Positions 8,006 through 31,039 of a DNA stretch of 64,000 nt are shown piece by piece. This stretch comes from an uncultured delta proteobacterium (GTDB taxonomy: Bacteria > Desulfobacterota > Syntrophorhabdia > Syntrophorhabdales > Syntrophorhabdaceae). Each line of letters begins with the position of its first letter. The first letter of the stretch is position 1. Below the pieces are notes generated by a model. It had not been told where the DNA came from. It searched no databases and saw only the letters and a list, made by a program, of their open reading frames with translations. The stretch is from positions 3,249-67,248 of the forward strand of contig CAVVCD010000049.1 of assembly GCA_963746565.1 (NCBI GenBank), given 5' to 3'. Both the position numbers and the translations under genes were made by a program.

Positions 8006-8030
8006 CAGGCTATCAGGCTATGGGCTATAG
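8006..8030. repeat. Tandem caggctat caggctat gggctat ag words
   Basis: Read directly from the sequence. The same ggctat word family occurs at 22831-22844, 33883-33896 and 57873-57895. Confidence 0.6.
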
Positions 8031-9414: not shown

Positions 9415-9435
9415 TGTGACTTAATTCTTAGTTTC

Positions 9436-10557
9436 TCATCTTCTTAACTTCTGTTTCTTACCCTGTCCACAGATGCCGCATTCTTGGCACCAGCTCTTTT
9501 TTCCATCATCTGCGTAAGAACCTTCCTCACCGGAAGGACTCTCCAGATGAAGCAATTTACCATTGCGTCTTTTCAGATATTGGTAATCGAGTGGCACTTT
9601 TCCAAAGCCACCGGTAATATCCAAGGCATACTGAGGCATTGCAAGGCCAGACCCATTCTTTCTCAGGAAATGGATGATTTGGATTCCCTTTTTAATACCT
9701 GTCTTAAAATGCATGGCACCCTTAACCTCGTCGAGCTGAAAAAGATAATAGGGCTTTACCCCAATCGATACCAGCATTTCAAAAAGCTTCAAAAGTATAT
9801 GAGGGCAATCGTTAATGCCCCGCAGGAGGACTGTTTGGCTCACCAAGCTGGCGCCTGCTTCCCGTAGCTTTTTCACAGCATCAACGAATTCCGGCGATAC
9901 CTCCGTCGGATGGTTTATATGAATGACAACCCATACAGGTGAAAGCTTCGATATCGCCTTCAAGTGCCCTTTTTTCAGCCCTTCCGGATAAACTACAGGC
10001 AGCCTTGTGCTTATCCTGACCGTTTTAATCCGGCTAACGTTTTTCAACCTTTCCATCATATATGAGAAATCATCTGTTGGAAGAGTAAAAGGATCACCTC
10101 CTGAGACAATAACCTCCCTCAAGTCCTCATCGCCCTCCATGTAACTGAAACTCTCTTCCCACGAGGCCCCCGGATCACGGTTTCTGCCTACAAATCTTCG
10201 CCTGTTACAAAACCTGCAATACATTGCACAGTGAAAAGTGGCAAGAAAAACACCTCGTCCGGGATACTTTTTTATAAAGGAAGTTGTTACTGAAAAACGT
10301 TGTTCATCGAGAGGATCAGCTTGACCGGTTCGAATAAGCTCAGCCTTCGAAGGAACAGATTGCCTTCTCAAGGGACATGCTGGATTTTCTTTGTCAGCCA
10401 GATTAAGGTAGAATTCAGGTATTTTTAGCGGGAAAACATCAGATACCTTTTGTATTTCTTTCTTAGCTTCTTCAGTGAGGTAAATATGTTTGGAAAGTTG
10501 TTCTACGTTGGAAAGGAAAGGGAGGGTAGCAGATCTACCCTCCTCCTTTCTTGGCAA
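9436..10557 (-). CDS. KamA-family radical SAM aminomutase (lysine 2,3-aminomutase-like)
   Basis: CAMYCRFCNRRR (CxxxCxxC), GGDP, a C-terminal Cys cluster CQECGIC, and FPLKIPEFYLNL...NPACPLRRQSVP upstream. Start is uncertain. The ORF runs to 10674 but that part overlaps pal, so I use TTG 10557. Confidence 0.75.
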   Translation of the reverse strand: MPRKEEGRSATLPFLSNVEQLSKHIYLTEEAKKEIQKVSDVFPLKIPEFYLNLADKENPACPLRRQSVPSKAELIRTGQADPLDEQRFSVTTSFIKKYPGRGVFLATFHCAMYCRFCNRRRFVGRNRDPGASWEESFSYMEGDEDLREVIVSGGDPFTLPTDDFSYMMERLKNVSRIKTVRISTRLPVVYPEGLKKGHLKAISKLSPVWVVIHINHPTEVSPEFVDAVKKLREAGASLVSQTVLLRGINDCPHILLKLFEMLVSIGVKPYYLFQLDEVKGAMHFKTGIKKGIQIIHFLRKNGSGLAMPQYALDITGGFGKVPLDYQYLKRRNGKLLHLESPSGEEGSYADDGKKSWCQECGICGQGKKQKLRR

Positions 10558-15768: not shown

Positions 15769-18027
15769 TTACCACTGGCCGGTCTTCAGGTATTCGTCCA
15801 TGGCTGCTGCTGCCTTACGTCCTGCACCCATAGCAAGAATAACTGTTGCAGCACCGGTCACGATGTCGCCACCGGCAAAAACACCTTTCCGGCTCGTCTT
15901 GCCTGTCTCCGGATCAGCGACAATATTACCGGATTTTCTGAGCTCGAGGCCTGCTCCGCTCTGGGTAAGGATGGGGTTCGGACCCTGGCCTATGGCAACG
16001 ATCACAACGTCAACGTCGATGATATAATTGGAGCCTGGTATATCCATAGGTCTCCGTCTTCCAGAGGCATCAGGCTCGCCCAACTGCTGTTTTACTACTT
16101 CTAACCCCGTTACCCATCCATTATCATCGCCAACTACCTTGATAGGGTTTGTGAGGAGTCTGAAATCGATCCCTTCCTCCTCTGCATGATGGGCCTCTTC
16201 CGCCCTCGCCGGCATCTCAGCCCTTGAACGTCGGTACACAAGGTATACATTCTCAGCGCCAAGTCGCTTTGCCACCCTCGCAGAATCCATGGCAACATTA
16301 CCACCGCCGATAACCGCAACCTTACTTCCCACCCGGACCGGTGTATCGTATTCCGGGAAGAGATAAGCCTTCATAAGGTTTGCCCTCGTTAGGAACTCGT
16401 TTGCTGAATAAACGCCATTCAGGTTCTCGCCGGGGATGTTGAGGAAATAAGGCAACCCTGCACCAGTTCCAACAAAGATCGCATCAAATCCCTGGGCAAA
16501 GAGCTCATCAACGGTCACTGCCTGGCCAACAATCACGTCCACCTTTATCTTCGCGCCAAGCTTGCCCACATAGTCCACTTCCCTCTGCACGATTGCTTTG
16601 GGGAGACGGAATTCAGGGATACCATACACGAGCACACCACCGGCTTTATGGAGGGCCTCGAAAACCGAGACGTCATGACCCTTCTTCGCGAGCTCTCCAG
16701 CAACGGTTAACCCTGCTGGTCCTGCACCGACGACTGCCACTTTTTTCCCTGTGGGTTTTGCAACCTCAGGAACCCTGATGTCACCTTGTTGTGCCTCGTA
16801 ATCAGCAGCAAAGCGTTCCAACCTCCCGATGGCGATGGGTTCACCTTTCTTGCCAAGAACACATTTTTCTTCGCACTGGGTCTCCTGCGGGCATACACGG
16901 CCGCAAACGGCAGGCAGGGCATTCGTTTCCTTGATGACATGGATGGCGCCCATGAAATCGCCTTCCTTTATCTTCTTGATGAATTCAGGGATAGTGATGT
17001 TCACAGGACAACCTTCAATACAGGGCATATTCTTGCACTGGAGGCAACGGGACGCCTCCCTGATAGCATTTTCCCGGGTATAGCCAAGAGCAACCTCGCT
17101 GAAATTCTGGACCCTCTTCTTCGGATTCTGCTCAGGCATTCTCTCGCGCCTTTTCGTCTTCTTTAACTGCTTTGCCTGAAATTCAAGCTTGCACTGGTGG
17201 TCCCACATGGCACGCCGCTCTTCTCGGTTATACATTTTCTGGCGGGCGACCAGCTCCTTGAAATCCACCTGGTGCCCATCGAATTCAGGTCCGTCAACAC
17301 AGACAAACTTTGTCTCGCCCCCGATAGTGGCACGGCAACAACCGCACATACCCGTGCCATCGACCATAATGGTGTTCAGGCTGACGATCGTTCTTATATT
17401 ATGAGGTCTTGTCACATCACTCACAGCCTTCATCATGACCACAGGGCCGATGCCCACAACCTCTTCGATCTTCTCGCCCTTTTCAATGAGCTGTTTGAGG
17501 ACATCAGTGACAAAACCGTGGTGGCCATAAGTACCATCGTCGGTCGTCACGAAGAGCTCTGTACTCACTGCCTTCATTTCGTCTTCCAGGATGAGCATTT
17601 CTTTCGTCCTGGCGCCGATAATGGAGATAACCCTGTTTCCAGCCTCAAAGAGAGCCTTTGCAATGGGGAGCACGGGTGCAACACCAACACCGCCTCCTAC
17701 ACAAACCACGGTTCCATATTTCTCGATATGGCTGGGCCTTCCAAGAGGGCCAACAACGTCAAGGAGGGTCTGCCCTTTTTCAAACTTCGCCATCTTCTGG
17801 GTGGATGACCCGACTGCCTGGAAGATAACAGTAATAAGGCCCGCTTTCCTGTCATACTCAGCTACAGTCAGGGGAATACGCTCTGCATAGTCGTCTACCC
17901 GAAGGACAACAAACTGGCCTGCTTTTACCTTTTTTGCAATGTCCGGCACGTAGAGTTTAAAAAGCGTGAGGGAAGGTGCCAGGTCTCGTTTTTCAACAAT
18001 TTCATTTAGTTTCGGTTCTCTTGCCAT
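15769..18027 (-). CDS. Fused NfnA/SudB-like (FAD/NAD, 2Fe-2S) and NfnB/SudA/GltD-like (2x4Fe-4S, FAD, NADPH) oxidoreductase, 752 aa
   Basis: N-half carries GTGMCGCCRATIGGETKFVCVDGPEF. C-half carries CLQCKNMPCIEGCP, CGRVCPQETQCEEKC, VAVVGAGPAGLT and VIGGGNVAMD. Confidence 0.85.
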   Translation of the reverse strand: MAREPKLNEIVEKRDLAPSLTLFKLYVPDIAKKVKAGQFVVLRVDDYAERIPLTVAEYDRKAGLITVIFQAVGSSTQKMAKFEKGQTLLDVVGPLGRPSHIEKYGTVVCVGGGVGVAPVLPIAKALFEAGNRVISIIGARTKEMLILEDEMKAVSTELFVTTDDGTYGHHGFVTDVLKQLIEKGEKIEEVVGIGPVVMMKAVSDVTRPHNIRTIVSLNTIMVDGTGMCGCCRATIGGETKFVCVDGPEFDGHQVDFKELVARQKMYNREERRAMWDHQCKLEFQAKQLKKTKRRERMPEQNPKKRVQNFSEVALGYTRENAIREASRCLQCKNMPCIEGCPVNITIPEFIKKIKEGDFMGAIHVIKETNALPAVCGRVCPQETQCEEKCVLGKKGEPIAIGRLERFAADYEAQQGDIRVPEVAKPTGKKVAVVGAGPAGLTVAGELAKKGHDVSVFEALHKAGGVLVYGIPEFRLPKAIVQREVDYVGKLGAKIKVDVIVGQAVTVDELFAQGFDAIFVGTGAGLPYFLNIPGENLNGVYSANEFLTRANLMKAYLFPEYDTPVRVGSKVAVIGGGNVAMDSARVAKRLGAENVYLVYRRSRAEMPARAEEAHHAEEEGIDFRLLTNPIKVVGDDNGWVTGLEVVKQQLGEPDASGRRRPMDIPGSNYIIDVDVVIVAIGQGPNPILTQSGAGLELRKSGNIVADPETGKTSRKGVFAGGDIVTGAATVILAMGAGRKAAAAMDEYLKTGQW

Positions 18028-18072: not shown

Positions 18073-19561
18073 CTATTGTTCTAGCTTAATTGGTAACTTC
18101 ACCTTAAAGGTGGTGCCTTTTCCTACCTTGCTGTCCACCTCAATATGTCCAAAGTGTGACTCCACAATCCTTTTCACAATGGAAAGCCCAAGGCCTGTTC
18201 CCGTTATGTACCTCGTATCGGGTCCGCAAACGCGGTAAAACTCTTCAAAAATGCTTGACAGGTGTTCCTTGTCGATGCCGATGCCTGTATCGGCAATTTT
18301 GATGTTCAGGTAATGGTTGCTTGGGACCGCGCTAATCGTAACCTTTCCTTTTGCCACGTTATACTTAATTGCATTTGAAATAAGGTTCGTGAATAACTGC
18401 TCCATTTCCGCCCGGTCTGCCTCCACAAGGGGAAGTTTTTCCGGCAAGTCCATCTTAAACTTAATCTCATTCGCTTCACCCTGGTTTTTCAGAAGCTCTA
18501 CGGTGCTTATAATGATACCGGTTAAATCAAGGAGCTCTTTTTTTCTCTCAACACGTTTACACTCGAGCCTGCTGAACTGAAGAAGGTCGTTCACGAGATC
18601 AAGGAGCGAATGGGTCCTTGTCTTTGCCCTCTCAAGCATCTGGCGATTCATCTGTGGATCATTTCCTGCAGCACCGCTTAAATACGCAGAAAGGTAGCCT
18701 TCCACGGCTGACAGGGGAGCACGCAACTCATGGGTCACCATGGAAACAAACTGGGATTTTACCTGGTCGAGTTCTTTCAGGCCCGTTATGTCCCGAAGTG
18801 TGCTCACAACTCCAAGTTCCTGCCCATCTGTGTCCCGGATTGCCGACACGTTTACCATCAGTGTTTTTGGTGCAGGCTTTGTCAACTCTATCTCCTCAGA
18901 CATTGCCGTGTAACGGGAAGAGTCAGGCAACAAGGCTCTTGTTCATGAGATCTACCAGGTTTTTTTCCTTGATGACCTCCCCGATGTTCTTGCCAACTTC
19001 GAGCTTCACGTTCAGGTTAAGCATCTTCAACGCCGCAGGGTTCCAAAGAACCAGCTGATGCTCCTTATTCGTCACAAGAATCCCGTCGGCCATAGAGTTA
19101 ACGATGGTGTGGATCTTCGACTCCTCACGGGCAACTTCAAGAAGCTTTTGATCCCTCTCCTCCATAAGCCTCTGGGCCTGGAGACTGAGGCGTCTCTTTT
19201 CAAGGCCCCTGTTTACAACAGCAATGACCTGGTCAGGAGCGAATGGCTTTGGCATATAGTCGTATGCCCCGTGTTTCATTGCATCAACGGCCGTCTCGAT
19301 CGTTGCAAATCCGGTAATGACGATCATGATGATTTCCGGGTCAAACTTTCTCACCTCTTCCATCATCTCAAGGCCACCCATGACAGGCATCATGAGATCA
19401 ACCAGTATGAGATCAAAAGGCCTTGACTTAACGAGCTTCAGCCCTTCTTCGCCATTCTCTGCCACATCGACGGTGTAGCCTTCGCTTATAAGGATTCGGC
19501 GGCACCCTTCCCGGATACCCCTCTCGTCATCAACGACCAGTATGTTTGATTCCTCAGCCAC
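18073..19561 (-). pseudogene. REC-PAS-HisKA-HATPase kinase split into two ORFs (18923..19561 and 18073..18933)
   Basis: The upstream ORF holds the receiver (DDERGI...DLMMP...K) plus the N-terminal half of a PAS fold. The downstream ORF begins with the PAS beta-strands G-I (EEIEL..TLMVNVSAIRD..ELGVVSTLRDIT), then HELRAPL and the HATPase. The frames differ by one within 18923-18942. Confidence 0.7.
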
Positions 19562-19581
19562 AGTCCACCAAGAAGTCTCGT

Positions 19582-19986
19582 CTATCCTTGTGCAGATCGA
19601 GCCAGAAGCTCATTGATCTTCTTTATAAGATCCTCAGGCAACAGTGGTTTACTGGCATAATCGTCGGTCTTCATCCAGTAGCCGTCAAGCTCCTGGGAGA
19701 AATCCATACCAGTCTCGCTCGACACTGCGGTGAGCATGAGAATCGGAGTGTTCTTCGAGGTTGGGTCCGCCTTGAGTGCCTTTGCAAACCCAAAACCCGT
19801 ATCATGCTTCTCCATCATCAGATCAAGAACGATCAGGTCGGGCTGTTCAAACCTGACTCTGTCCAGGCCTTCTGCCCCTGAATAGGCCACCACAACGTCG
19901 AATCCGTTGTTTTCGAGTACGGCCTTATTCAGATCAATAAAATCAACATCGTTGTCAACAAGTAAAATTTTTGTTTTTTTACTCAT
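19582..19986 (-). CDS. Single-domain CheY-like response regulator
   Basis: Receiver motifs DD...D (ILLVDNDVD, LIVLDLMM), T (LTA) and K (SKP). No output domain. Confidence 0.85.
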   Translation of the reverse strand: MSKKTKILLVDNDVDFIDLNKAVLENNGFDVVVAYSGAEGLDRVRFEQPDLIVLDLMMEKHDTGFGFAKALKADPTSKNTPILMLTAVSSETGMDFSQELDGYWMKTDDYASKPLLPEDLIKKINELLARSAQG

Positions 19987-20009
19987 AGTTACTTCTCCCT
20001 ATCGTTTCG

Positions 20010-22085
20010 TTATATTTTGAATCCATAAACTTTTGCCTTTCCTTCGTCCCCTGCCGTCTCCTCACTCACACTAACAGGCAAGGTAATCACAAACGTACTG
20101 CCCTTCCCTAAATCAGTCTCAACATCAATCTTTCCCTGGTGGCGCTCGATGATACCATAAGAGATAGCCAATCCAAGGCCAGTGCCTTTTTCCTTTGTGG
20201 TAAAGAAAGGGGAAAAGAGTTTGCCCATCACCTCGGGAGGAATACCGGGACCAGTGTCTGCAATTTTGATCTTAATCTGTTTCTTATCAAAGATTGTGCT
20301 GATCGTCAGTTTCCCGTTACCCTCCATGGCTTGAGCCGCGTTCAGTATGATGTTGAGGAATACCTGCTTGAGTTGGGTCTCATCAGCAACGATCGTCTGA
20401 GGCCCCTGATCAAAAGATTTCTTAATCTTGATGTTGTGAAATAAGGATTGATTCACAACCAGGCTGAGCACCTCTTCAAGGATATCGTTGACATTAACCT
20501 CTGAGGCCCTCAGCTTCTTCTCTCTGGCAAAGCTCAGGAGACCCTGGACAATATCTTTCGCCCTGTTGGCCTCGCTTATGACCAGTGCAATATCCTCCCG
20601 TTTCGGATCATCGGGCTCCAAGCTCTTTTGAATTAAATGGGAATAGATCAGGATGGTACCGAGGGGGTTATTGATCTCGTGGGCAACACCGGCTGCTAAC
20701 TGCCCGATGGAGGCTAACTTCTCGGTCCTGATGAGCTGGGTCTGTGCTTGTTCAAGCTCCTGGTGCGATACCTGGAGTTCCCGGTGAGATTTCTCTAACT
20801 GTTGAAAGATCTTCTTGCTCTCTCCAAGCAGGTAAGGTAGGCAATATTCCTCGCGAGCAAGGCCTTGAACAACCGCAATTGCCTTGTCACGGCACGATGG
20901 GTAGCCACAGGCCCTGCAATCCAGATTGTGATTCGGTGGAAGTTTCCCGATTTTCTTCAGCACCGTCCTGATCTCTTCTTCAGTCGGCGAAGGCAATCTT
21001 TGTTCCATGTTTTGAAAGCTCCGTGCCAAGTCAATGTCCTTGAACTTATCAAGCTCTGCCATGACGCTTACAATGTCCTGTTTGGCCATTTCGGATTTGG
21101 TGTACTGGGCAACGATCTGCCTGCGGGCAAGGATTGAGAGGTCACGTTCCGCGAAAGGACCGTCAACGCAGCCATAACAATAAACAAAGTCGAGGAACTT
21201 CCCCTGCATGTAACCTTCAGCCAGTTGTTTGAGTGCCCCGATTGACCGCCTGTAACCTCCTATGACGCTGATCTCATCCGTGAGAACGTCAAAGCTTGGC
21301 CCGATATTCCGGTACAGGCCGCCGATAACAGGGATTATTCTCCCCTGGTACGGTCTCGGCCCATCAAATTCAGTCTCAGGTACGGCTGATTTATTTATGT
21401 CCATCTCATTGATCAGTTTCCTTACGTCAACGAAGGTGATGACCTCATCAATGGAACCTGCTACTTCGGGAGCTACCATTTCCCCCATGCGGGAAAGGCA
21501 AGAGGTGATGTAAACAACCTTCCATTCAGGGCCCTTTAACTGGTGCGCTACCCTGCCAATAGCGATCATTGGAGAAACTACGGGGGCAAGGTTCGGGATG
21601 AGTTGCGGGTAATATTTCTGGACATAAAAAACTATTACCGGACAAAACGAAGAGATGAGGGGACGAGTGGTCTCCTCATGGAGAAGTTTGAAGTACACCT
21701 GGCTAACGAGCTCAGCTCCAAAGGCACCTTCCCAGACTTCATCGAAACCTATTTGCTTGAGTACGCCCACAACCTGCCTTGGAGTTCCGAGGTCTGTCTC
21801 TACGGCGAAGCTTGGATCAAGGACTGCGATAGTTTTCGTTCCCTCGGCAAAGAATTCTTTCACATGGGGAAGACCGCCGTGGTAGGTCAGTGCACCCTGG
21901 GGGCATGCCCTGATACAACCACCACACATAACGCACCGCTCCTGGATAACCCTGAAACCATCTTTCCCCACCTTGATTGCCTTTGCAGGACAAATCTGAA
22001 CGCAGTAGGAACAACGGCGGCACTTACGGTTGTTGACATCAATGTCATAGGGATTTTGTTTTGTATCAAACGTTACGGTTGCCAT
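20010..22085 (-). CDS. Histidine kinase with a 2x[4Fe-4S] ferredoxin, a degenerate [FeFe]-hydrogenase H-domain-like region and a CxxCx4Cx16C Fe-S input
   Basis: CRRCSYCVQICP and CVMCGGCIRACP; SSFCP, TSCLSRMGE and YCYGCVDGP in the order of H-cluster motifs L1-L3; CRACGYPSC-x16-C; a coiled coil; then AHEINNPL and the N/G boxes. Confidence 0.75.
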   Translation of the reverse strand: MATVTFDTKQNPYDIDVNNRKCRRCSYCVQICPAKAIKVGKDGFRVIQERCVMCGGCIRACPQGALTYHGGLPHVKEFFAEGTKTIAVLDPSFAVETDLGTPRQVVGVLKQIGFDEVWEGAFGAELVSQVYFKLLHEETTRPLISSFCPVIVFYVQKYYPQLIPNLAPVVSPMIAIGRVAHQLKGPEWKVVYITSCLSRMGEMVAPEVAGSIDEVITFVDVRKLINEMDINKSAVPETEFDGPRPYQGRIIPVIGGLYRNIGPSFDVLTDEISVIGGYRRSIGALKQLAEGYMQGKFLDFVYCYGCVDGPFAERDLSILARRQIVAQYTKSEMAKQDIVSVMAELDKFKDIDLARSFQNMEQRLPSPTEEEIRTVLKKIGKLPPNHNLDCRACGYPSCRDKAIAVVQGLAREEYCLPYLLGESKKIFQQLEKSHRELQVSHQELEQAQTQLIRTEKLASIGQLAAGVAHEINNPLGTILIYSHLIQKSLEPDDPKREDIALVISEANRAKDIVQGLLSFAREKKLRASEVNVNDILEEVLSLVVNQSLFHNIKIKKSFDQGPQTIVADETQLKQVFLNIILNAAQAMEGNGKLTISTIFDKKQIKIKIADTGPGIPPEVMGKLFSPFFTTKEKGTGLGLAISYGIIERHQGKIDVETDLGKGSTFVITLPVSVSEETAGDEGKAKVYGFKI

Positions 22086-22312: not shown

Positions 22313-22798
22313 TTGGTATTAATCATGACGGCAATAAAAGGCGTGATGAAAGAGGTTATGATGATCGTGGAGGCCATTGAAGAATCCGATCTCTTCAAAG
22401 GGGTAAGCAAGGAGTTTCTTCATGAGATAGGTAAGGCCGGGGAAGTAAAGCACTGCAAGCGCGACTCATTTATCTTCCACGCCAACGAGAAAGCACGGTA
22501 TGTTTATCAGCTCATTGAGGGTACCATAGACATAATGATGGCCGAGAAAGAGATCATTCACTTCACTGTTACCAGGCCCGGTGAAATAATCGGATGGTCT
22601 GCCCTCGTTGAGCCATACACATATACTGCCACCGCAAAGTGCACATCTGACACGAGGGTTGTGAAATTATCAAGGGAGTCCCTCGAGAAGATCATCATGA
22701 AACACCCTTCTGACGGGCTAGCCATACTAAAGCATCTCACCGGCATCATTTCCCATCGCCTCCGCCACGCCTATTTGTATATTTACAATAAAGGATAA
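22313..22798 (+). CDS. Stand-alone cyclic-nucleotide-binding (Crp/CAP effector) domain protein without an HTH
   Basis: cNMP beta-barrel pattern (LFKGVSKEFL..., GEIIGWSALV). The start (TTG 22313 or a downstream ATG) is uncertain. Confidence 0.6.
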   Translation: MVLIMTAIKGVMKEVMMIVEAIEESDLFKGVSKEFLHEIGKAGEVKHCKRDSFIFHANEKARYVYQLIEGTIDIMMAEKEIIHFTVTRPGEIIGWSALVEPYTYTATAKCTSDTRVVKLSRESLEKIIMKHPSDGLAILKHLTGIISHRLRHAYLYIYNKG

Positions 22799-23083: not shown

Positions 23084-23890
23084 TCAGCCTTCTCCATGAA
23101 AAAGGTCATGTAACCACTCAATGCTCCGGTAGGAGGCTGCCATAAAACTTGTTACCGGCTCATTCTTCTGGTCTTTAGGAAAAACTTCGAGCGTTAGAGA
23201 ACCCTGGTAGGTTTTGACAGGCAACCAGCGCATTATCTCTTCCCAGTTCAGTACTCCCAATCCAGGCAACCAGTGGCGATCGTGTACCCCATCGTTGTCC
23301 CCCAGATGGGTCACCATGAGTCGATGCCCCCATCGTTCGAGCAATGCTCCCGGTTTGGGACTGTAGAGAAAATCATGGGAAGTGTCGTAACAGAATCCAA
23401 GATGGTCAGACTGAATGTTTGAAAAAATAAGATCCAGCAAGGCTGGCTGCATGGTGTTTTCAACTACTACCTTCACATCAGAATCCTCTGCAAACTTGAT
23501 GAGATCCATCAGGGCAATAAGCCCCTCAGCGGCGGGACTTTCCGGTTGCTCACCTTTGCTCTGGCTCGCATGTATGACAAGAAAAGGTATAGAATGTCTC
23601 TTGCACAAATCTACATATGATCGATAGACACGCCTCCATTCCTCACGCCTGGTCTCAGATCCTGACCATACATCGTTACATCCTATGTCGGGCGCATGGA
23701 TATACTCCAGAAAAAGGCCCCTGGAACGGATAAGACCTGGAAGGAGATCGGCCTTGCCCTTGCCCACAAGTTCCTCCTCAGGGCCAAGCCAGAATCCGGT
23801 GGCAGAAAAACCTGCCTCCTTGATGAGATCAAGCCTCTCCTCAAAGGGCATGGGGTACCCAAACCAGGAAAACATGCTGAATCTACTCAC
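23084..23890 (-). CDS. Sugar phosphate isomerase/epimerase, xylose-isomerase-like TIM barrel
   Basis: Size and motif pattern (VVVENT, HLGFCYDTSH, HLGDNDG) fit the AP-endonuclease-2/TIM family. Confidence 0.6.
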   Translation of the reverse strand: MSRFSMFSWFGYPMPFEERLDLIKEAGFSATGFWLGPEEELVGKGKADLLPGLIRSRGLFLEYIHAPDIGCNDVWSGSETRREEWRRVYRSYVDLCKRHSIPFLVIHASQSKGEQPESPAAEGLIALMDLIKFAEDSDVKVVVENTMQPALLDLIFSNIQSDHLGFCYDTSHDFLYSPKPGALLERWGHRLMVTHLGDNDGVHDRHWLPGLGVLNWEEIMRWLPVKTYQGSLTLEVFPKDQKNEPVTSFMAASYRSIEWLHDLFHGEG

Positions 23891-23991
23891 ACAATTTCTC
23901 CTGTTTTCGTGTACAGATGCTTTCAGGTAAATAAAAAGGCTGCATTGCCTAAACAGACAATACAGCCTCGAAGGTTACATTTAGCCCACCA

Positions 23992-25413
23992 TTATTGCTT
24001 CCCTGTCGTCAGGTATTCGTGCATTGCACGGGCTGCTTTTCTGCCGGCACCCATGGCGAGGATGACGGTGGCAGCGCCGGTTACGATATCGCCACCGGCC
24101 CATACCCGGTCACGGGTAGTTTTGCCGGTTTCAGGATCGGCAACGATGGTGCCGTGTCGTGTCGTATCCAGACCCGTGGTGGTTGATGGAACCAATGGGT
24201 TGGGGCTATTACCAATGGCGCACACTACTGCGTCCATCTCCATTCTGAAATTAGAATTCGGTATTTCAATCGGGCGTCTTCTTCCGGAGGCATCCGGCTC
24301 CCCGAGTTCCATCTTCAAACACTCGATCTCTTTGAGCCAGCCATTTTCATCCCCGATATACCGGACAGGAAGGGTCAGCATGTTGAAAATCACGCCCTCT
24401 TCCTCGGCGTTCTCACTCTCTTCAAGACGGGCAGGAAGTTCAGCGTGGGAGCGCCTGTATATGATCCTTGATTCATCCGCACCCATGCGTAGCGCTGTCC
24501 GTGCCGAATCCATGGCCACGTTGCCACCTCCAACCACTGCAACCTTTTTATGCCTTCTAATGGGTGTCCTCGACAAGGGGTACTTGTATCCCTGCATCAG
24601 GTTCATCCTGGTGAGGTACTCATTTGCAGAGTAGACACCGTTCAGATTTTCTCCTGGTATGTCCATGAACCAGGGAAGCCCGGCTCCTGTTCCGATAAAT
24701 ACTGCGTCGAATTTCTCAAGGAGTTCATCCATGGAGCGTGTCTTTCCCACAACAAAATCGGTTATCACCTTGACACCCAGTTTTCCCACGTATTCAACTT
24801 CCCGTGCAACGATGGCTTTTGGCAACCTGAACTCGGGAATACCATACGTTAAAACCCCACCGGCCTTATGGAGCGCCTCATAAATTGTGACCTCATGACC
24901 GAGGAGAATCAGGTCACCGGCAACCGTCACCCCAGCGGGTCCTGAGCCGACAACAGCAACCTTCTTCCCTGTAGACCTTGCTTTCGGTGGGAGATCAACC
25001 TCGCCTTGCCCTGCTTCCCAGTCAGCAAGGTAGCGCTCCAGGCGGCCAATGGCAACCTCCGCCCCCTTGTTTTTCAATATGCACTGGGCTTCACACTGGC
25101 TTTCCTGGGGGCACACCCTTCCACAAACCGCAGGGAGGCAGTTCTTTTCTTTTAACTTCCGGATACCTCCCCTGAAATCTCCCTTAACGATGAAGGAAAT
25201 GAAATCGGGTATGTCGATCTCGACAGGACACCCGGTCTTACACCGCGGCTTTTTGCACTGGAGGCAGCGACTCGCTTCGGCAATCGCTAGTTCCTCTGTG
25301 TACCCGAGGGCAACCTCGTTGAAATTGTGACTTCGCATTTCCGGAGACTGCTTCGGCATATCGCGACGATTTGTATCGATCTTGCTCTGTTTTTCCTCGC
25401 TCATGAGTGACAC
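23992..25413 (-). CDS. NfnB/SudA/GltD-like NADPH-dependent oxidoreductase subunit
   Basis: CLQCKKPRCKTGCP, CGRVCPQESQCEAQC, VAVVGSGPAGVT, VVGGGNVAMD and GGDIVTGAATVI motifs. Confidence 0.88.
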   Translation of the reverse strand: MSLMSEEKQSKIDTNRRDMPKQSPEMRSHNFNEVALGYTEELAIAEASRCLQCKKPRCKTGCPVEIDIPDFISFIVKGDFRGGIRKLKEKNCLPAVCGRVCPQESQCEAQCILKNKGAEVAIGRLERYLADWEAGQGEVDLPPKARSTGKKVAVVGSGPAGVTVAGDLILLGHEVTIYEALHKAGGVLTYGIPEFRLPKAIVAREVEYVGKLGVKVITDFVVGKTRSMDELLEKFDAVFIGTGAGLPWFMDIPGENLNGVYSANEYLTRMNLMQGYKYPLSRTPIRRHKKVAVVGGGNVAMDSARTALRMGADESRIIYRRSHAELPARLEESENAEEEGVIFNMLTLPVRYIGDENGWLKEIECLKMELGEPDASGRRRPIEIPNSNFRMEMDAVVCAIGNSPNPLVPSTTTGLDTTRHGTIVADPETGKTTRDRVWAGGDIVTGAATVILAMGAGRKAARAMHEYLTTGKQ

Positions 25414-26258
25414 TTACCCCCTTTGTGTAATATGGGCTTTGGTTCACTGTGCCGGAAATATGATGTCTCTTCATTCATATACTGCTTCCTTCGCGCCAGA
25501 AATTCTTTCCAGTCTACTTCGTGGCCGTTAAACTCAGGGCCATCAACACAGGCAAACTTCATTTTATCCCCTACCGTGACACGGCAGACGCCGCACATGC
25601 CTGTCCCGTCAATCATGATTGGGTTTAGATTGACTACTGTTGGGATTCCCATGCTTTTTGTAATCTCTGATGTGTGGGCCATCAGGTATGTACAGCCATT
25701 CACAATAATCCTGTCAGGCGGGTTGGGTAGACCGTGTATAATATCCGCCAGGCGTGTGATATGGCCCTTCATACCAAGACTTCCATCCCGGGTAATGTTA
25801 AAAATCTTCGAGACATGGCCCACATATCGATCTGCCCAGTACAGAAGGTAGGAACTTCGCGCTTCGAGAACCATGATGATCTGATTTCCTGCATACCACA
25901 GTTCACGGGCTACCGGATATATACTGCCGATCCCGTAGCATCCTGCAATGCACATCACTGTTCCATATTTCTTGATTTCTGTGGCATTACCAAGGGGGCC
26001 AACACATGTGGGGATTGTATCCCCTGGTTTAAGCTCAGCAAGGGTCCCGGTGGATGCCCCAACTTCCATGAAGATGATAGTAACGGTTCCTTTCTCAAGG
26101 TCCCAGTCAGCAACAGACAAGGGGATGCGCTCCCCCTCCTCGCTCGCTCGAACGATGACAAACTGCCCCGGTTTGATCTTGGATGCTATTTCCGGCGCTT
26201 CCAGGGTAAGGAGGTGCATATTGGGAACAATCATGGTGCGTTCAATTACTTTATTCAT
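25401..26258 (-). CDS. NfnA/SudB-like FAD/NAD(P)-binding [2Fe-2S] subunit
   Basis: Ferredoxin-reductase fold with GTGMCGVCRVTVGDKMKFACVDGPEF. Overlaps its neighbours by 13 nt and 4 nt. Confidence 0.85.
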   Translation of the reverse strand: MNKVIERTMIVPNMHLLTLEAPEIASKIKPGQFVIVRASEEGERIPLSVADWDLEKGTVTIIFMEVGASTGTLAELKPGDTIPTCVGPLGNATEIKKYGTVMCIAGCYGIGSIYPVARELWYAGNQIIMVLEARSSYLLYWADRYVGHVSKIFNITRDGSLGMKGHITRLADIIHGLPNPPDRIIVNGCTYLMAHTSEITKSMGIPTVVNLNPIMIDGTGMCGVCRVTVGDKMKFACVDGPEFNGHEVDWKEFLARRKQYMNEETSYFRHSEPKPILHKGGKCHS

Positions 26259-28522
26259 TGTGCCTCCTTATCTGAAAAGGATGTTGCCTTGACCCACTCC
26301 TCAATAACCTGCATGCCTGCAACTACCTGCCCGAGGGGTATGCCACGGTAAAAAGCGTTCATGGCAACCGGGAGACTCTCCGGGTCAATTTTGATCGGTC
26401 CCTTCAGCCATTTTCCAGCGTCTTTGAATTCGAACTTTGCAAACTCCACTCTCTTTTTCCCGACATGGAAATCATTGATCTGTTTCTTGATCTCCCCCTG
26501 GATTGAAGCGATATCCTTGTATTTAAATTTCCCTTTTTTCATCTTGTCTGCAATCCTTGTCAGTATCCACCAATCGGGCTTCGTATCCATGTACCGTTCT
26601 GTCGCCTTTTCGAGCCTGAGAACCCTGCCCTCCACATTGATAGTCGTACCGGGTGACTCAGGAAAGAGGCTTGTTGGAAGAATCAGATCAGGTTGCCGCG
26701 CAGATGATGGCGGTATGGCGTTTTGGTAAATGAGGTAGTCACAGTCCGGTATGATGTCAAATCGACCCTCTCCTATGAGATAAACTAGTTTTTTCCGTTT
26801 TGTGAGATCAGTTGTCGGTATGGTAAGTTTTACGCTACCCGCTTCAGCCTTCAGGAGTAATCCAGGTTTAATGCCGGGGAACACACCCATGGAGAGCATG
26901 CCCAGAAGGTTTGTGTATGGGTGGGCGACTATGACTTTCCAGGCAAACCGGTCTCTTAAGATGCGAACCCGTTCAAACACCTCGCGCCGTTGGGATGAGA
27001 AGATTACCTCAGGTCCCACAATCAGCACATTTGCAGATGATTGAGCGAACGAACCGGCAACGGCTGCCAAATCACCGTTCCACTCCTTGCCTCCTTTACC
27101 CTTACCTTTGCCGACCTTGGAAAGACCGTCAATGAGTGCATCGAGGAAGCCAGGCCAACGAGGTGAATCCATCTTGAATGATGCCTCCGACAGCATGTCG
27201 AGATTTGAATCACAGGAACCAAGGGTCACCAGTGTGGCGCCTTTCTGGGCGGCCCTCTTTGCGGCTATGCCAATGGGGGTATAACCGTAGGTCGAATCAA
27301 ACCCCATTGCGAGGATTCCCTGGGCCATTTCAATTGAATCATAGGTGCTTGTATGAACAACAAGGTCGAGGAAAGGTGCAAAATCATTGCTTAAGTCAAC
27401 CATCATTGACGACAGTATCATCTCTGAGCCAAGGGCCTGTCTCACAAACTGCTGGGCCACAAAAAGATCCTCGTTTGACAACTGTGGCGAAACCATTACG
27501 AGGATATCGTCCGGTTTTAAACCCGACATCTTCTCTGCTGCCGTATCGATGGCCTGATCCCACGATATGACTTCGTATCCCACAGGGGTCATCCTCTGGG
27601 GAACCGTAAATCGTTGCGGGCTATTCACATACTCGGGTATGGCAAATCTCCCTTTTACACAGATAAGGCCCTGGTCCACAACAGAATCATAATCAGGCAG
27701 GACATCGATAACCTCGTCGTTTTTAACCTGAAGCATGAGACGGCAGCCTGATGAGCAGAATGTGCAGGTAGTCGCGACCTTTGCATCCGCCATTCCATAC
27801 CATTTACTCACCTTTGTCGACAGGGCTCCTGTCGGGCAGACAGAGACACAGGCCCCGCAGAATTCACAACCTGCTTCTAAATGGGTACGGTCGAAGGCAG
27901 GTCCGATGGTGGTTAGTTTGCCTCTCTGTTTGAATGCCAGTGTGCCATTCAGGCGAACGCTGTTACATACACGCACACAACGGCCGCACAGGATGCAGAG
28001 GTTATAATCCCTATCGTAAAATGGATCATTTTTCTCCACGGGAAAACCACGATAGTAAACCGGGTAGGAAGTCTCAGTAAGACCTACCTTATCGACAATT
28101 TCCTGGAGCTCGCAACTGGCATCATTGGGACAGTATCTACAGCCCGTGGTTACACCGACCTTGCGTATGGTCCCCATGTATTTCTTGCACTCATCGTGCT
28201 CATCGCAGAAGAGGCAGCTTGCAGGGTGCTCGCTCAAAAGCAGTTTAAGGATTTCCTGCCTTAGACCCCTTATCTCTGTCGTATCTGTCCGAATGACCAT
28301 ACCAGCCTCAACAGGGGTTGTGCATGATGTGGGAAACCCTCTCAATCCGTCCACCTCTACTATGCAGAGTCGGCACGCTCCGTAGGAAGGCAGATGTTCA
28401 AGAGTACACATGGAGGGGATATAGATGTTGTTGTCGCGGGCGGCCTGCAGTATTGTGCTATTCGGTCGCACCTCAACCTGTTTGTTGTCAATAGTAACGG
28501 ATATCTTTTTTTCTTTTGTCAT
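26255..28522 (-). CDS. NuoG/HydA-N-terminal-like polyferredoxin with a degenerate molybdopterin-oxidoreductase domain (non-catalytic)
   Basis: 2Fe-2S region (CTLEH..GACRLC..C), HPASCLFCDEHDEC, CILCGRCVRVC, CEFCGACVSVCP and CTFCSSGC...C. No Cys/Sec active-site motif and no H-cluster motifs were recognised. Confidence 0.75.
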   Translation of the reverse strand: MTKEKKISVTIDNKQVEVRPNSTILQAARDNNIYIPSMCTLEHLPSYGACRLCIVEVDGLRGFPTSCTTPVEAGMVIRTDTTEIRGLRQEILKLLLSEHPASCLFCDEHDECKKYMGTIRKVGVTTGCRYCPNDASCELQEIVDKVGLTETSYPVYYRGFPVEKNDPFYDRDYNLCILCGRCVRVCNSVRLNGTLAFKQRGKLTTIGPAFDRTHLEAGCEFCGACVSVCPTGALSTKVSKWYGMADAKVATTCTFCSSGCRLMLQVKNDEVIDVLPDYDSVVDQGLICVKGRFAIPEYVNSPQRFTVPQRMTPVGYEVISWDQAIDTAAEKMSGLKPDDILVMVSPQLSNEDLFVAQQFVRQALGSEMILSSMMVDLSNDFAPFLDLVVHTSTYDSIEMAQGILAMGFDSTYGYTPIGIAAKRAAQKGATLVTLGSCDSNLDMLSEASFKMDSPRWPGFLDALIDGLSKVGKGKGKGGKEWNGDLAAVAGSFAQSSANVLIVGPEVIFSSQRREVFERVRILRDRFAWKVIVAHPYTNLLGMLSMGVFPGIKPGLLLKAEAGSVKLTIPTTDLTKRKKLVYLIGEGRFDIIPDCDYLIYQNAIPPSSARQPDLILPTSLFPESPGTTINVEGRVLRLEKATERYMDTKPDWWILTRIADKMKKGKFKYKDIASIQGEIKKQINDFHVGKKRVEFAKFEFKDAGKWLKGPIKIDPESLPVAMNAFYRGIPLGQVVAGMQVIEEWVKATSFSDKEAQ

Positions 28523-30399
28523 GGTCTCTTCTCCGCACTTCTTATCACAATAGCGTCACCGGCGATGGCCTCAAAACGGCAAATCTCGTAACAGGATCGG
28601 CACTTTATACATTTGCTGGCGTCGAGGTTGTGAGGTTCAGATCGTGGCCCGGTGATTGCGCCCGTCGGACAAGCCCTCACACACGATTGGCAACCGGTAC
28701 ACTTTTCTTTAATAACCCGGTACTCGATCAGGTCCTTACACACAGTGGCCCGGCAACGGTTGTCTTTTATGTGCTCAAGGTATTCATTCCTGAAATACCG
28801 AAGCGTTGTGAGGACAGGGTTTGGCGCCGTCTGACCGAGGCCGCAGAGGGAGCCCTTTTTGATGGTATCGCCCAGGGTTCGCAAGGCCAGGAGGTCTTCC
28901 GGTGTACCCTCGCCGTGGGTAATCTTTTCTAGTATCTCCACCATGTGCCTTGTTCCCACGCGACACGGGACACATTTGCCACACGACTCTTTCTGGGTAA
29001 AATCGAGGAAATACCTGGCAATGTCCACGATGCACGTATCATCGTCCATGATAATGAGACCACCGGATCCCATGATAGAACCCGCAGATGCCAGGGATTC
29101 ATAATCGACAGGGAGGTCAAGAAATTCCTCAGACAGGCAGCCTCCGGATGGTCCCCCTGTTTGAATCGCCTTGAAATTCTTCTGAACACCGCCCCCGATA
29201 TCGAAAATAATCTCCCGGAGTGTGGTGCCGAGCTGAACTTCAATCAACCCCGGACGTCGTATTTTGCCGACAAGAGAGAAGGTCTTTGTTCCCCGGTTTC
29301 CCTCCTTGCCGTATTTTGTGTACCACTCTGCCCCATTGCGCAGTATATTCGGGAGCGTTCCCATTGTCTCTACGTTGTTGATAATTGTCGGGGATCCGTA
29401 GAGCCCTGATATGGCAGGAAATGGTGGACGGGAACGGGGCATTCCCCGTTTCCCCTCTATGGAACCGATAAGCGCAGTCTCTTCACCGCACACAAAAGCA
29501 CCTGCGCCCTCCTTGATCTTAATCTCAAAACTGAACTTCGAGTCAAGAATCTTGTCGCCAAGGAGCCCGTATTCCCGCATCTGTGCTATGGCGTTTTTGA
29601 GCCGTTCTATGGCGAGGGGGTATTCAGCCCTGATGTAGATGATGCCCTTGCTTGCCCCGATAGCGTACCCGGCAATCAGCATTCCCTCAAGTACCGCGTG
29701 GGGATCCGATTCGATAAGTGACCTGTTCATGAACGCCCCGGGGTCACCTTCGTCGGCGTTGCATATGAGGTACTTTTGTTCACCCGGCGCATTCCTGCAG
29801 ACAGTCCATTTCTTGAAGGTTGGAAAACCGGCACCGCCCCGGCCCCGCAAACCTGCCTGGCGGACCACACCGATCACATCATCAGGAGACATTTTTAATG
29901 CATTCATCAAACCCTGGTAGCCGTCAAGAGCAAGATACTGATCGATGTCTTCCGGGTCGACAAAACCGCAGTTACGTAATACAATCCTTACCTGCGGCTT
30001 GAGCATGGGAAGGTCAAAGAACCTCGGAACGTCATGAAAAGATTCTTTTCCGAAATTTCCCAGGGCAAGCTTCGCATGAGGAACGCCTCCCAGCAACTCG
30101 GATTTGAGGATAATGGGAAGTGTTTTTTCCGTGACGTTGTTGTAGCTCACCCGGGGTTGCCCGGGAAGCTTTATATCCATAAGAGGTTCCAGGTAGCAAG
30201 GCCCGATACATCCAACCTGGATAACCTTGGCAGAAACCTTGTTTTCTATAAGAAATTCATCGATCCCCTTCAGTACGTCCAGTGCTCCTGCTGCCCTCCC
30301 ACAGGATGCTGCCCCTACATAGATGATAGGGTCCTTGTTGTTCTCAAGCTCCTCCCATTTTTTCTTAGCCAGTGATATTTTTTTATTTAGCTTATTCAT
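28519..30399 (-). CDS. NuoF/HydB-like NAD(H)-binding flavoprotein, bifurcating type, with an extra N-terminal thioredoxin-like domain and a C-terminal 2x[4Fe-4S] domain
   Basis: GRGGAGFPT (FMN/NADH), ESCGKCVPCRVG (N3 cluster), and C-terminal CTGCQSCVRACP and CIKCRSCYEIC. Confidence 0.88.
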   Translation of the reverse strand: MNKLNKKISLAKKKWEELENNKDPIIYVGAASCGRAAGALDVLKGIDEFLIENKVSAKVIQVGCIGPCYLEPLMDIKLPGQPRVSYNNVTEKTLPIILKSELLGGVPHAKLALGNFGKESFHDVPRFFDLPMLKPQVRIVLRNCGFVDPEDIDQYLALDGYQGLMNALKMSPDDVIGVVRQAGLRGRGGAGFPTFKKWTVCRNAPGEQKYLICNADEGDPGAFMNRSLIESDPHAVLEGMLIAGYAIGASKGIIYIRAEYPLAIERLKNAIAQMREYGLLGDKILDSKFSFEIKIKEGAGAFVCGEETALIGSIEGKRGMPRSRPPFPAISGLYGSPTIINNVETMGTLPNILRNGAEWYTKYGKEGNRGTKTFSLVGKIRRPGLIEVQLGTTLREIIFDIGGGVQKNFKAIQTGGPSGGCLSEEFLDLPVDYESLASAGSIMGSGGLIIMDDDTCIVDIARYFLDFTQKESCGKCVPCRVGTRHMVEILEKITHGEGTPEDLLALRTLGDTIKKGSLCGLGQTAPNPVLTTLRYFRNEYLEHIKDNRCRATVCKDLIEYRVIKEKCTGCQSCVRACPTGAITGPRSEPHNLDASKCIKCRSCYEICRFEAIAGDAIVIRSAEKRP

Positions 30400-30841
30400 A
30401 GTCTTTTAATTGCTCCGTTAGTTTGTTTACTGTCACCCTGCTGTATATCTCTTTATCTATCTGGACAACAGGGGACAATGCGCAGCAGCCGAGGCAGGCA
30501 ACCCTCTCCAGGTCATACCGTTTGTCCGGTGTTGTTTCGCCGCAACTGATACCTAACCCTCGCTCCAGCATCTCAAGCAAGGTGGCGCCTCCCCTAACGT
30601 GGCAAGCTGTACCGAGACAGACTTTTACCGCGTGACGGCCTGGTACGGTGAATCGAAACTGCGCATAGAACGAAGAAACACCATAGATCTGGTTTTCTGT
30701 GATGCGGAGATATCTCGAAATCCTTTTTACCGATTCAGGAGAAATGTATCCGTACTCTTTTTGCACATCCTGCAGAATCGGTATTAACTCATCCTGTTTC
30801 CTGTTGTGTCTTGCAAAAATTGTCTCGATCGGTTCAGGCAT
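30392..30841 (-). CDS. NuoE/HydC-like thioredoxin-fold [2Fe-2S] subunit
   Basis: CLGTACHV...CLGCC cluster motif. Start set at ATG 30841, preceded by AAGGAGAG. The ORF-track extension to 30949 has no support. Confidence 0.85.
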   Translation of the reverse strand: MPEPIETIFARHNRKQDELIPILQDVQKEYGYISPESVKRISRYLRITENQIYGVSSFYAQFRFTVPGRHAVKVCLGTACHVRGGATLLEMLERGLGISCGETTPDKRYDLERVACLGCCALSPVVQIDKEIYSRVTVNKLTEQLKDYE

Positions 30842-31010
30842 AGTGCTCTCCTTAAGACCACGCTTTACGTGGGTACTGGAATTTGAAACATTGAGTAAGT
30901 ACTTTCTTGTTCCACAGAGATGTGGCGTTTGATTGAAATGGATAAACAAAAAGGGCTTCTTTCCCTTTTACCATAACCCCCCTTTTACACCAACTACAAC
31001 AACTACACCA

Positions 31011-31039
31011 TTTTTAGTAAATCGGACAATTTATGTCAA
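31011..31039 (-). promoter_or_regulatory. Candidate sigma70-like promoter TTGACA-17 nt-TAAAAA for the nuoE-like operon
   Basis: On the minus strand, -35 is at 31039-31034 and -10 at 31016-31011. This implies a leader of about 160 nt. Confidence 0.3.

Follow-up and report, generated by a model that had tools for sequence, protein, structure and literature searches.

The window analyzed here, a 64-kb stretch of DNA from an uncultured member of the Syntrophorhabdaceae (contig CAVVCD010000049.1), carries on its minus strand a tightly packed operon in which genes for a NuoEFG-like module (bfuC, bfuB and bfuA) are followed by genes for an NfnA/NfnB-like pair (nfnS and nfnL). We consider it probable (about 0.65) that the five products form one soluble complex of the Bfu family, designated 'Nfn-BfuABCSL', in which the NfnSL pair would act as the third-substrate module. 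The operon comprises the following features (aa, amino acids; nt, nucleotides; FAD, flavin adenine dinucleotide; NAD(H) and NADP(H), nicotinamide adenine dinucleotide and its phosphate):

bfuC, 30392..30841, minus strand: NuoE/HydC-like protein, [2Fe-2S], 149 aa (PF01257, E value 6e-47)
bfuB, 28519..30399, minus strand: bifurcating-type NuoF/HydB-like protein, 626 aa (Pfam and full-length alignments)
bfuA, 26255..28522, minus strand: NuoG-like predicted iron-sulfur wire, [2Fe-2S], two [4Fe-4S], MopB-type [4Fe-4S] and a molybdopterin fold lacking an active site and domain IV, 755 aa (Pfam and NCBIfam)
nfnS, 25401..26258, minus strand: NfnA/NfnS-like protein, FAD and [2Fe-2S], 285 aa (matches to 5jca_S and 4ylf_A)
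nfnL, 23992..25413, minus strand: NfnB/NfnL (GltD-type) protein, two [4Fe-4S], FAD and NADP(H) site, 473 aa
putative sigma-70-type promoter, 31010..31039, minus strand: TTGACA, 17-18-nt spacer, TAAAAAT (consensus match)
5' leader, 30842..31009, minus strand: ~170 nt with two small hairpins (alignment and consensus fold of six loci)
predicted intrinsic terminator, 23936..23969, minus strand: 15-bp stem followed by a T-run, 23 nt past the nfnL stop codon

The original prediction described five minus-strand genes overlapping by 8, 4, 4 and 13 nt, which is borne out by the list of open reading frames (ORFs). The ORF listed for bfuC spans 30392..30949, but the ATG at 30841, located behind AAGGAG, was preferred as its start. 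The bfuC/bfuB overlap is 8 nt long (30392-30399), and the same junction overlaps in 57 of 58 loci; these and all further synteny counts refer to informative flanks within 92 fetched loci, 80 of which were fetched from among more than 566 matching metagenome stretches. The bfuB/bfuA (28519-28522) and bfuA/nfnS (26255-26258) overlaps are both 4-nt ATGA, while that of nfnS and nfnL (25401-25413) is 13 nt with a GTG start, or a 4-nt ATGA with the ATG located three codons downstream. The bfuA/nfnS junction, i.e., the border between the two modules, is as tight as the junctions within the Bfu part: an overlap is present in 64 of 88 loci and the gap never exceeds 100 nt.

The putative promoter (TTGACA-18-AAAAAT, 31039-31010) was the top minus-strand match within 23700-31200. 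Its -35 element (CTTGACA) is invariant and its -10 element (TAA[AT]AAT) is kept in eight Syntrophorhabdaceae loci, some of which are only ~60% identical in BfuA. At the other end, 23969-23936 is the longest hairpin-plus-T-run of the region, and inside the five-gene block the minus strand has no further terminator-like site of similar length. Of note, regional counts of promoter-like and terminator-like sites were not above shuffled expectation, and the weight of both predictions lies entirely in their positions and conservation. The leader hairpins (GCCACA..TGTGGC, and CCACG-TAAAG-CGTGG just before AAGGAG) were seen in six loci with few compensatory changes, and comparison of the leader with Rfam gave no credible family match. 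We take the five genes to constitute one predicted transcription unit. The same gene order recurs in all informative loci among the 92, so the block is not a product of chance; it is real and well delimited, and not an annotation artefact.

A synteny survey recovered the five-gene block in related genomes. The window derives from a species of Syntrophorhabdus; one locus of a metagenome-assembled genome is 96-99% identical, and the cultured Syntrophorhabdus aromaticivorans UI 72-88%. The same gene order occurs in Syntrophorhabdaceae and in genomes labelled KSB1, Latescibacterota, Zixibacteriota and Acidobacteriota, representing at least five phyla. In all 84 loci with enough flank nfnS lies directly after bfuA, nfnL comes after nfnS in 74 of 74, and bfuB is placed directly before bfuA in 59 of 63. 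The exceptions to the last arrangement are L081 and L090 (bfuCB a few genes downstream), L058 (a GltD-like domain on BfuB) and L073. Distant representatives, with 36-42% BfuA identity, retain the five genes in other surroundings. The block is ancient and widespread in anaerobes.

The BfuA-NfnS-NfnL trio remains intact where BfuCB has moved or stems from a divergent lineage (~54% versus ~70% identity; L041, L044, L047, L081 and L090), which argues that the trio is a unit plugging into a BfuBC core. In L081 and L090 the genes are ordered DRTGG - BfuA - NfnS - NfnL - DRTGG/HATPase - HydS-like - BfuC - BfuB. Locus L058 (657..3776) encodes a 1039-aa BfuB with an added GltD-like domain, 36% identical to NfnL, next to BfuA-NfnS-NfnL. 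A further variant, L095/L096 (1469..4453; 36% BfuA identity; 51 contig-index blocks), has two glutamate dehydrogenase genes directly upstream of the block, a possible sign of a connection with amino-acid metabolism that depends on NAD(P)H, and no HydS-like gene nearby.

The strongest evidence for one physical complex comes from natural fusions. Three proteins of 1023-1080 aa from separate 50%-identity clusters (P0212, P0237 and P0259) are BfuA with a full NfnS domain at the C-terminus, and these domains are 43-47% identical to the NfnS of the window across ~275 residues. The order at the single fusion locus read (L094) is BfuC-BfuB-[BfuA~NfnS]-NfnL.

A neighbour-joining tree, built without bootstraps, grouped all 78 NfnL sequences linked to Bfu genes in one clade. 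Outside it were the stand-alone paralogues encoded on the same contigs, T. maritima NfnB (Thermotoga maritima), the NfnL of Pyrococcus furiosus and a second Nfn of the window:

second stand-alone Nfn, 15769..18027, minus strand: 752-aa NfnS-NfnL fusion (PRK12778 type) in which the GGGxG and xGP motifs are canonical

The presence of a separate Nfn in the same genomes argues that the linked pair is a specialised orthologous group and not the housekeeping Nfn. The second Nfn gene lies ~6 kb downstream of the operon, and in the related Syntrophorhabdaceae loci L006, L025, L027 and L033 an unfused NfnS'-NfnL' pair is found there. The G+C content is 0.50-0.52 over the operon (24001..30000) and the second Nfn gene (16001..18000); elsewhere in the window it ranges from 0.43 to 0.51 and is mostly 0.45-0.48.

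The bifurcation core would be formed by BfuC and BfuB. BfuC, encoded beside BfuB, is a 2Fe-2S_thioredx protein in which the CxxxxC...CxxxC motif is present. BfuB, which has an FMN/NAD(H) domain and the B1 [4Fe-4S] site, contains the Pfam domains Complex1_51K, SLBB and NADH_4Fe-4S, followed by two C-terminal Fer4 domains, and its residues 24-130 align to the N-terminal thioredoxin-like domain in HydB/NfnB structures. The motifs CTGCQSCVRACP and CIKCRSCYEIC were confirmed in the translation. End-to-end alignments were obtained with the NfnB of Caldicellulosiruptor saccharolyticus (9bov_B, 741 bits) and Thermococcus sibiricus (9n5u_B, 739 bits), the NiFe-HydB of Acetomicrobium mobile (7t2r_B, 718 bits), Stn of Sporomusa ovata (8oh5_B, 715 bits) and a FeFe-hydrogenase HydB chain (7q4v_B, 694 bits). 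All five of these solved bifurcating BfuB subunits share the GGPSGG loop and the C-terminal Cys motifs with the BfuB of the window.

Complex I NuoF chains, in contrast, align to the core of BfuB only, and BfuB, with its extra N- and C-terminal domains, scores under the NuoF equivalog cut-offs. According to the definition of the Bfu family (Schut et al. 2022), BfuB subunits have extra thioredoxin-like and 2x[4Fe-4S] domains that are lacking in the non-bifurcating NuoF and FdsB, and the activity is tightly coupled among NAD(H), ferredoxin and a third substrate; by their domains and motifs, BfuB and BfuC fall within this (HydBC-type) family. The NuoF-like protein had been predicted to be a bifurcating-type subunit, and its extra domains and best solved relatives (NfnB, NiFe-HydB and Stn) agree with this. 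A complex I N-module (NuoEFG) was rejected: the 64-kb window holds no nuo genes and BfuB has the extra cluster domains.

In BfuA, Pfam and NCBIfam searches identified Fer2_4, NADH-G_4Fe-4S_3, two Fer4, Molybdop_Fe4S4 and Molybdopterin domains. Pfam detected no Molydop_binding (PF01568), Fer4_20, Pyr_redox_2 or H-cluster (PF02906) domain. A HydABC-type [FeFe]-hydrogenase, whose large subunit contains an Fe_hyd_lg_C domain with TSCCP, MPCxxK and ExMxCxxGCxxG, was rejected on this ground. On alignment with FdsA of Rhodobacter capsulatus, the Cys-His pair of the molybdenum (Mo) site corresponds to Asp-Leu in BfuA, and to Phe-Tyr in distant orthologues. The corresponding region of the C. saccharolyticus NfnA is likewise degenerate. 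The ORF has no in-frame TGA able to encode selenocysteine, and the protein is ~200 residues shorter than FdsA. BfuA is thus predicted to be a catalytically dead NuoG-like iron-sulfur wire; with the Mo-site pair changed and Molydop_binding absent, it is not expected to be a formate dehydrogenase. Its earlier description as a wire without an H-cluster or Mo site therefore stands. The BfuA proteins of Latescibacterota, Zixibacteria and Acidobacteriota (L010, L011 and L012; ~8001..10500) have C-termini 70-90 residues longer, with a weak Molydop_binding remnant (32.6 bits) that is lost from the Syntrophorhabdus version.

BfuA carries a doubled motif, H99-x3-C103-x2-C106-x5-C112-x15-C128-x2-C131-x5-C137-E, which is present in 89 of 91 orthologues, with E108 nearly invariant. 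An extra cluster bound by this motif is possible. The split in the motif coincides exactly with the insertion point of the GltD domain in NfnA/StnC. The idea that the motif is a docking scar private to the NfnSL-linked family proved only partly tenable: among the 150 nearest representatives of 50%-identity clusters, 128 carry it. One of these, P0194 (906 aa), has Molydop_binding, lies beside a short NuoF in a formate dehydrogenase-like context and is free of NfnSL.

The NfnA-like and NfnB-like subunits were found to be true Nfn-type proteins, as predicted. NfnL has Fer4_20 and Pyr_redox_2/TIGR01316 domains, the latter above the TIGR01316 cut-off. It aligns almost gaplessly with T. maritima NfnB (4ylf_B; E value 3e-169, 567 bits) and also matches the P. 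furiosus NfnI L subunit (5jca_L; 2e-144), while matches to the GltD domains of NfnA/StnC were weaker (287-332 bits). All NfnL motifs are present (RCx2Cx4Cx3CP, GRVCPQExQCx3C and GIPEFRLPK), and the protein has the hallmarks of an NfnSL L subunit: two [4Fe-4S] motifs, FAD and NADPH Rossmann folds, and an Arg near flavin N5. The linked NfnL proteins share six clade-specific changes, all mild. Judged by these motifs, NfnL has the appearance of a fully canonical subunit, its two [4Fe-4S] clusters included.

NfnS (DHODB_Fe-S_bind/PRK06222) matches the P. furiosus NfnI S subunit (5jca_S; E value 6e-71) and T. maritima NfnA (4ylf_A; 7e-67), and it keeps the [2Fe-2S] Asp/Cys3 motif D-x3-C-x2-C...C (DGTGMCGxCR...C) as well as RIPLS of the FAD domain. 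However, linked and stand-alone NfnS differ at 19 positions (85/85 versus 0/8 sequences), clustered in the motifs that bind the dinucleotide: GGG[VI]G[VI]A[P/E/T] has become [G/A]GCYGIGS, and xGP has become NGC. G132E, D157R and F166H are likewise found in 85 of 85 linked sequences, and two Cys residues, C107 and C189, are new and invariant. A review of Nfn enzymes attributes the NAD specificity of the NfnA pocket to Asp, Gly and two Val residues, and reports that in P. furiosus NfnII a different NADH-binding domain goes with the lack of NAD+-dependent activity, the high-potential partner being unknown. Linked NfnS proteins may therefore have an NAD(H) site of different specificity, have lost it, or have converted it to something else. 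The claim of a complete NfnAB module thus holds for the canonical NfnL, but not fully for NfnS, whose NAD(H) pocket has been remodelled in a clade-specific way.

In the proposed complex, BfuB and BfuC would provide the flavin mononucleotide (FMN)/[4Fe-4S]/[2Fe-2S] bifurcation core, with NAD(H) reacting at the BfuB FMN and ferredoxin (Fd) at the C-terminal clusters of BfuB, possibly also at the distal cluster of NfnL. BfuA would connect the Bfu and Nfn modules as a dead iron-sulfur wire, and NADP(H) would react at the NfnL FAD, SL taking the place of a hydrogenase, a formate dehydrogenase or a fused GltD domain. The net activity would be that of an electron-bifurcating/confurcating transhydrogenase among ferredoxin, NAD(H) and NADP(H). 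Because NfnL looks fully canonical, including the two [4Fe-4S] clusters, the complex probably contains two bifurcation-competent flavin sites in series.

For the electron junction between the modules, the BfuA-NfnS contact is our first choice, held at somewhat less than even odds; it is favoured because of the natural fusions and because NfnS is the most changed subunit, with a remodelled NAD(H) pocket. A junction at the distal cluster of NfnL is possible but doubtful, and some other wiring is to be regarded as similarly tentative. The consequences of the two named routes were calculated from physiological potentials (NAD -280, NADP -380 and Fd -500 mV). A junction via NfnS gives 6 Fd_red + NADH + 4 NADP+ -> 4 NADPH, in which the donors average -445 mV. 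A junction via the NfnL distal cluster gives 4 NADPH + 3 NAD+ + 2 Fd_ox <-> 4 NADP+ + 3 NADH + 2 Fd_red, with an acceptor down to about -680 mV. Both routes would gear the transhydrogenase differently from an ordinary Nfn. In a serial arrangement, the latter route could supply ordinary ferredoxin with electrons from an NADPH pool that is weakly reduced, while the former could keep NADPH near -445 mV. C107 and C189 of NfnS, together with an extra 3-Cys motif of BfuA, might form an additional, possibly inter-subunit, metal centre replacing the nicotinamide. The most elaborate version, in which the NfnL FAD and the Bfu flavobicluster work in series with a stoichiometry other than 2 NADPH : 1 NADH : 2 Fd, under the control of an H2-sensing kinase switch, is rather unlikely as a whole.

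Several points weigh against the single-complex interpretation. The NfnS route would be wasteful compared to an ordinary Nfn, and the energetically better route via the NfnL distal cluster has less sequence support. The remodelled NfnS pocket leaves room for some unconsidered substrate. NfnSL and NfnABC are treated in the literature as alternatives, and their combination needs a rationale. The evidence consists of gene content, cofactor motifs, the dead Mo site, synteny, junctions, co-phylogeny and fusions, while the physical complex, its substrates, electron path, stoichiometry and regulation are proposed. Finally, the structural model of BfuA (AlphaFold2, AF2; built with a 22-sequence alignment) is confident only for residues 245-750, the molybdopterin-fold domain, which matches the NuoG/formate dehydrogenase/NfnA fold. 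Its iron-sulfur half is unusable (predicted local distance difference test, pLDDT, < 35) and gives no distance information, and a fold search returned NuoG, formate dehydrogenase, NfnA and HydA folds at a template modelling (TM) score of ~0.5 without discriminating among them.

The same five subunits could also form a complex with the ordinary function of NfnABC/Stn. BfuBC alone would then bifurcate, the NfnL FAD would be a plain entry point for NADPH and NfnS a structural or auxiliary part, with the net reaction 2 NADPH + NAD+ + 2 Fd_ox <-> 2 NADP+ + NADH + 2 Fd_red. BfuB is indeed closest to NfnB of the solved NfnABC enzymes, the homologous GltD-type FAD of StnC is non-bifurcating despite a similar-looking sequence, and the altered NfnS pocket would remove the second NAD site. 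NfnL, however, is far nearer to the bifurcating T. maritima NfnB than to the GltD domains of NfnA/StnC and shows only six clade-specific changes, all mild, and the strict conservation of a complete NfnS, its FAD-domain and [2Fe-2S] motifs intact, in 85 sequences would be odd for a passive part, since the fused NfnA and StnC work without NfnS. We regard this arrangement as unlikely, though it deserves to be kept in view.

A still less probable arrangement is that of two independent enzymes that are merely co-transcribed, namely an ordinary NfnSL and a BfuABC with an unlinked partner. In some clostridia nfn genes lie beside genes of multimeric hydrogenases and the products are not deemed one enzyme, and the five-subunit association proposed here is predicted from genes. 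Yet BfuA-NfnS fusion proteins exist, the adjacency is invariant across phyla, and an ATGA overlap falls exactly at the Bfu/Nfn border. The linked NfnS and NfnL form clades of their own in genomes that retain a stand-alone Nfn. Moreover, if BfuA is dead and a third-substrate module is missing, BfuABC would merely short-circuit ferredoxin to NAD+.

The only H-cluster-type domain of the window is encoded ~2 kb downstream of the operon at the head of a string of signalling genes (all assigned with Pfam):

HydS-like sensory [FeFe]-hydrogenase domain and HisKA-HATPase_c histidine kinase in one fused protein (HydS-HK), 20010..22085, minus strand: 691 aa
response regulator, 19582..19986, minus strand: 134 aa
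response regulator with PAS, 18923..19561, minus strand: 212 aa
HisKA-HATPase histidine kinase, 18073..18933, minus strand: 286 aa

HydS-HK retains the Cys ligands of the H-cluster, but its TSCCP motif reads SSFCP. Among the HydS-like homologues the ligand Cys residues are kept in 50 of 50 and the TSCCP relay Cys in none of the 50 (F, H, Y, S, N, D, A or M instead), and a C-terminal four-Cys 'FeS' domain is present. Of 32 wide-flank loci, 26 include a HydS-like gene; several lineages have the five genes without HydS within 6-7 kb. The fusion to HisKA-HATPase_c is found in the window and in all Syntrophorhabdaceae, and in related loci a kinase-like gene comes next. In other phyla a 422-aa HydS homologue, together with DRTGG and DRTGG-HATPase_c_2 genes, either immediately precedes bfuC or comes after nfnL. 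Retained ligand Cys, loss of the relay Cys and the C-terminal FeS domain are hallmarks of putative sensory group C hydrogenases, a group usually found with operons for bifurcating hydrogenases. The HydS proteins are read as regulators and not as subunits. From its conserved proximity, HydS-HK is a probable H2-responsive regulator of the operon, and H2 partial pressure would probably tune expression through it. The string at 18073..22085 looks like a multi-step phosphorelay headed by the hydrogenase-like sensor, and no DNA-binding output domain was seen in its genes. The assignment of the genes at 18073..19986 to the operon is tentative.

If the HydS-like protein were instead the true catalytic subunit, the operon would encode an H2-dependent, NADP-linked bifurcating hydrogenase. 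This is very improbable. A HydA homologue with all four Cys ligands does adjoin the cluster or lie inside it in most loci, and in L081 and L090 it stands between nfnL and bfuC. Against a catalytic role are the replaced relay Cys, the FeS domain typical of sensory groups, the kinase fusion or flanking kinase-like genes, the lineages devoid of a nearby HydS, and the position of the gene in the window, beyond the terminator and other genes. No catalytic hydrogenase or formate dehydrogenase subunit was found to complete the orthologous blocks among the loci, in keeping with the original prediction. An NAD(P)-dependent formate dehydrogenase is hardly credible: the 755-aa protein is named 'putative formate dehydrogenase' or 'formate dehydrogenase (NADP+) alpha subunit' in databases, its N-terminal half matches FdsA chains best and the fold search also returned formate dehydrogenase alpha subunits, but the Cys/Sec-His pair and the missing length are as described above, Molydop_binding is absent here and a weak remnant elsewhere, and there are no Mo-cofactor or fdhD-type genes in the 64-kb window.

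The H2-sensor phosphorelay is placed between two Nfn-type systems, the operon and the stand-alone Nfn. A xylose-isomerase-like gene of the triose-phosphate isomerase (TIM)-barrel type (23084..23890, minus strand) comes next after the operon terminator and is conserved there in close Syntrophorhabdus relatives only. Between the operon and the sensor kinase, a small ORF with a cNMP-binding domain (22313..22798, plus strand) lies on the opposite strand.

The locus has two machineries, NfnSL and NfnABC/Stn, that are usually exclusive in the literature and are here genetically welded in many anaerobic lineages. If the five proteins are indeed one enzyme, it would represent a new subunit architecture for the Bfu family and a second natural example of coupled bifurcation, after class II benzoyl-CoA reductase, and it may affect the balancing of NADH, NADPH and ferredoxin pools in syntrophs and sediment fermenters living near thermodynamic limits. 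The analysis also corrects the widespread misannotation of BfuA as formate dehydrogenase, and, through its recurrent link with a sensory [FeFe]-hydrogenase, the block allows H2-responsive control to be tested on a redox enzyme that is not a hydrogenase. The block is present in a cultured syntroph, S. aromaticivorans UI.

A literature search found no paper describing this composition (the genome paper of Nobu et al. 2015 and Supplementary Table 1 of Schut et al. were outside its scope, so a prior mention is possible), and a proteomics-related paper on strain UI has nothing on these genes. This agrees with the initial view that no characterised enzyme has the same subunits. The Bfu types listed by Schut et al. 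(2022) have FeFe, NiFe, Nfn (fused), Fdh, F420, Wor, Bam, Codh, Por, Mbh, Nuo and Rub modules, and none has NfnSL as extra subunits. Stn is described as having no NfnA homologue and Nfn as having no HydBC homologue (Kumar et al. 2023), and NfnSL and NfnABC as unrelated enzymes of the same function that are usually mutually exclusive (Xiao et al. 2025).

The closest parallels are NfnABC and StnABC (9bov, 9n5u and 8oh5). Like the present operon, they combine the BfuB/BfuC core (closest solved BfuB relatives, 714-741 bits) with a NuoG-like wire whose molybdopterin domain is dead and with a GltD-type module for FAD and NADP(H) that has two [4Fe-4S] clusters; the likely substrates, NADP(H), NAD(H) and ferredoxin, are shared as well. 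In these three-gene systems, however, the GltD domain is fused into the large subunit (963-1178 aa) and NfnS is lacking, whereas the present operon has five genes, including those for a separate canonical NfnL and a complete NfnS. The pair shares with NfnSL (4ylf and 5jca) the cluster and FAD/NADPH motifs of NfnL and the FAD-domain and [2Fe-2S] motifs of NfnS. Unlike canonical NfnSL, a free heterodimer (or S-L fusion) acting by itself with NAD(H) on S, it is always encoded behind bfuCBA, is sometimes fused to BfuA, and has altered dinucleotide motifs in S (GCYG, NGC and D157R). A Tyr-disrupted Gly-rich motif in the S subunit also occurs in P. furiosus NfnII (5vj7; IGAYTGI), but NfnII is a stand-alone archaeal heterodimer that keeps xGP and is a more distant match to the NfnS of the window (176 bits) than the NfnI S subunit (242 bits).

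A non-catalytic BfuA relaying electrons between a two-subunit module and BfuBC is also found in the NiFe-HydABCSL of A. mobile (7t2r) and in WorABCSL. SL is a NiFe hydrogenase or a tungsten aldehyde oxidoreductase in those enzymes, whereas it is of the flavin-based bifurcating type here. Geobacter SfrAB, an NADPH-dependent soluble Fe(III) reductase cited among the relatives of StnC, resembles the operon, as far as a comparison by description goes, in having a separate NuoG-like subunit (SfrA) and a GltD-like NADPH subunit (SfrB), but has neither a BfuBC core nor NfnS. A precedent for a serial design is class II benzoyl-CoA reductase, in which BamBCDEFGHI couples a HydBC-type confurcation module to a second (HdrA) bifurcation module (Appel et al. 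2026, preprint). This precedent makes a serial design plausible for 'Nfn-BfuABCSL', although the benzoyl-CoA reductase differs in its HdrA-type second module, its tungsten catalytic unit, its electron-transferring flavoprotein (ETF) partner and its lack of Nfn-type subunits.

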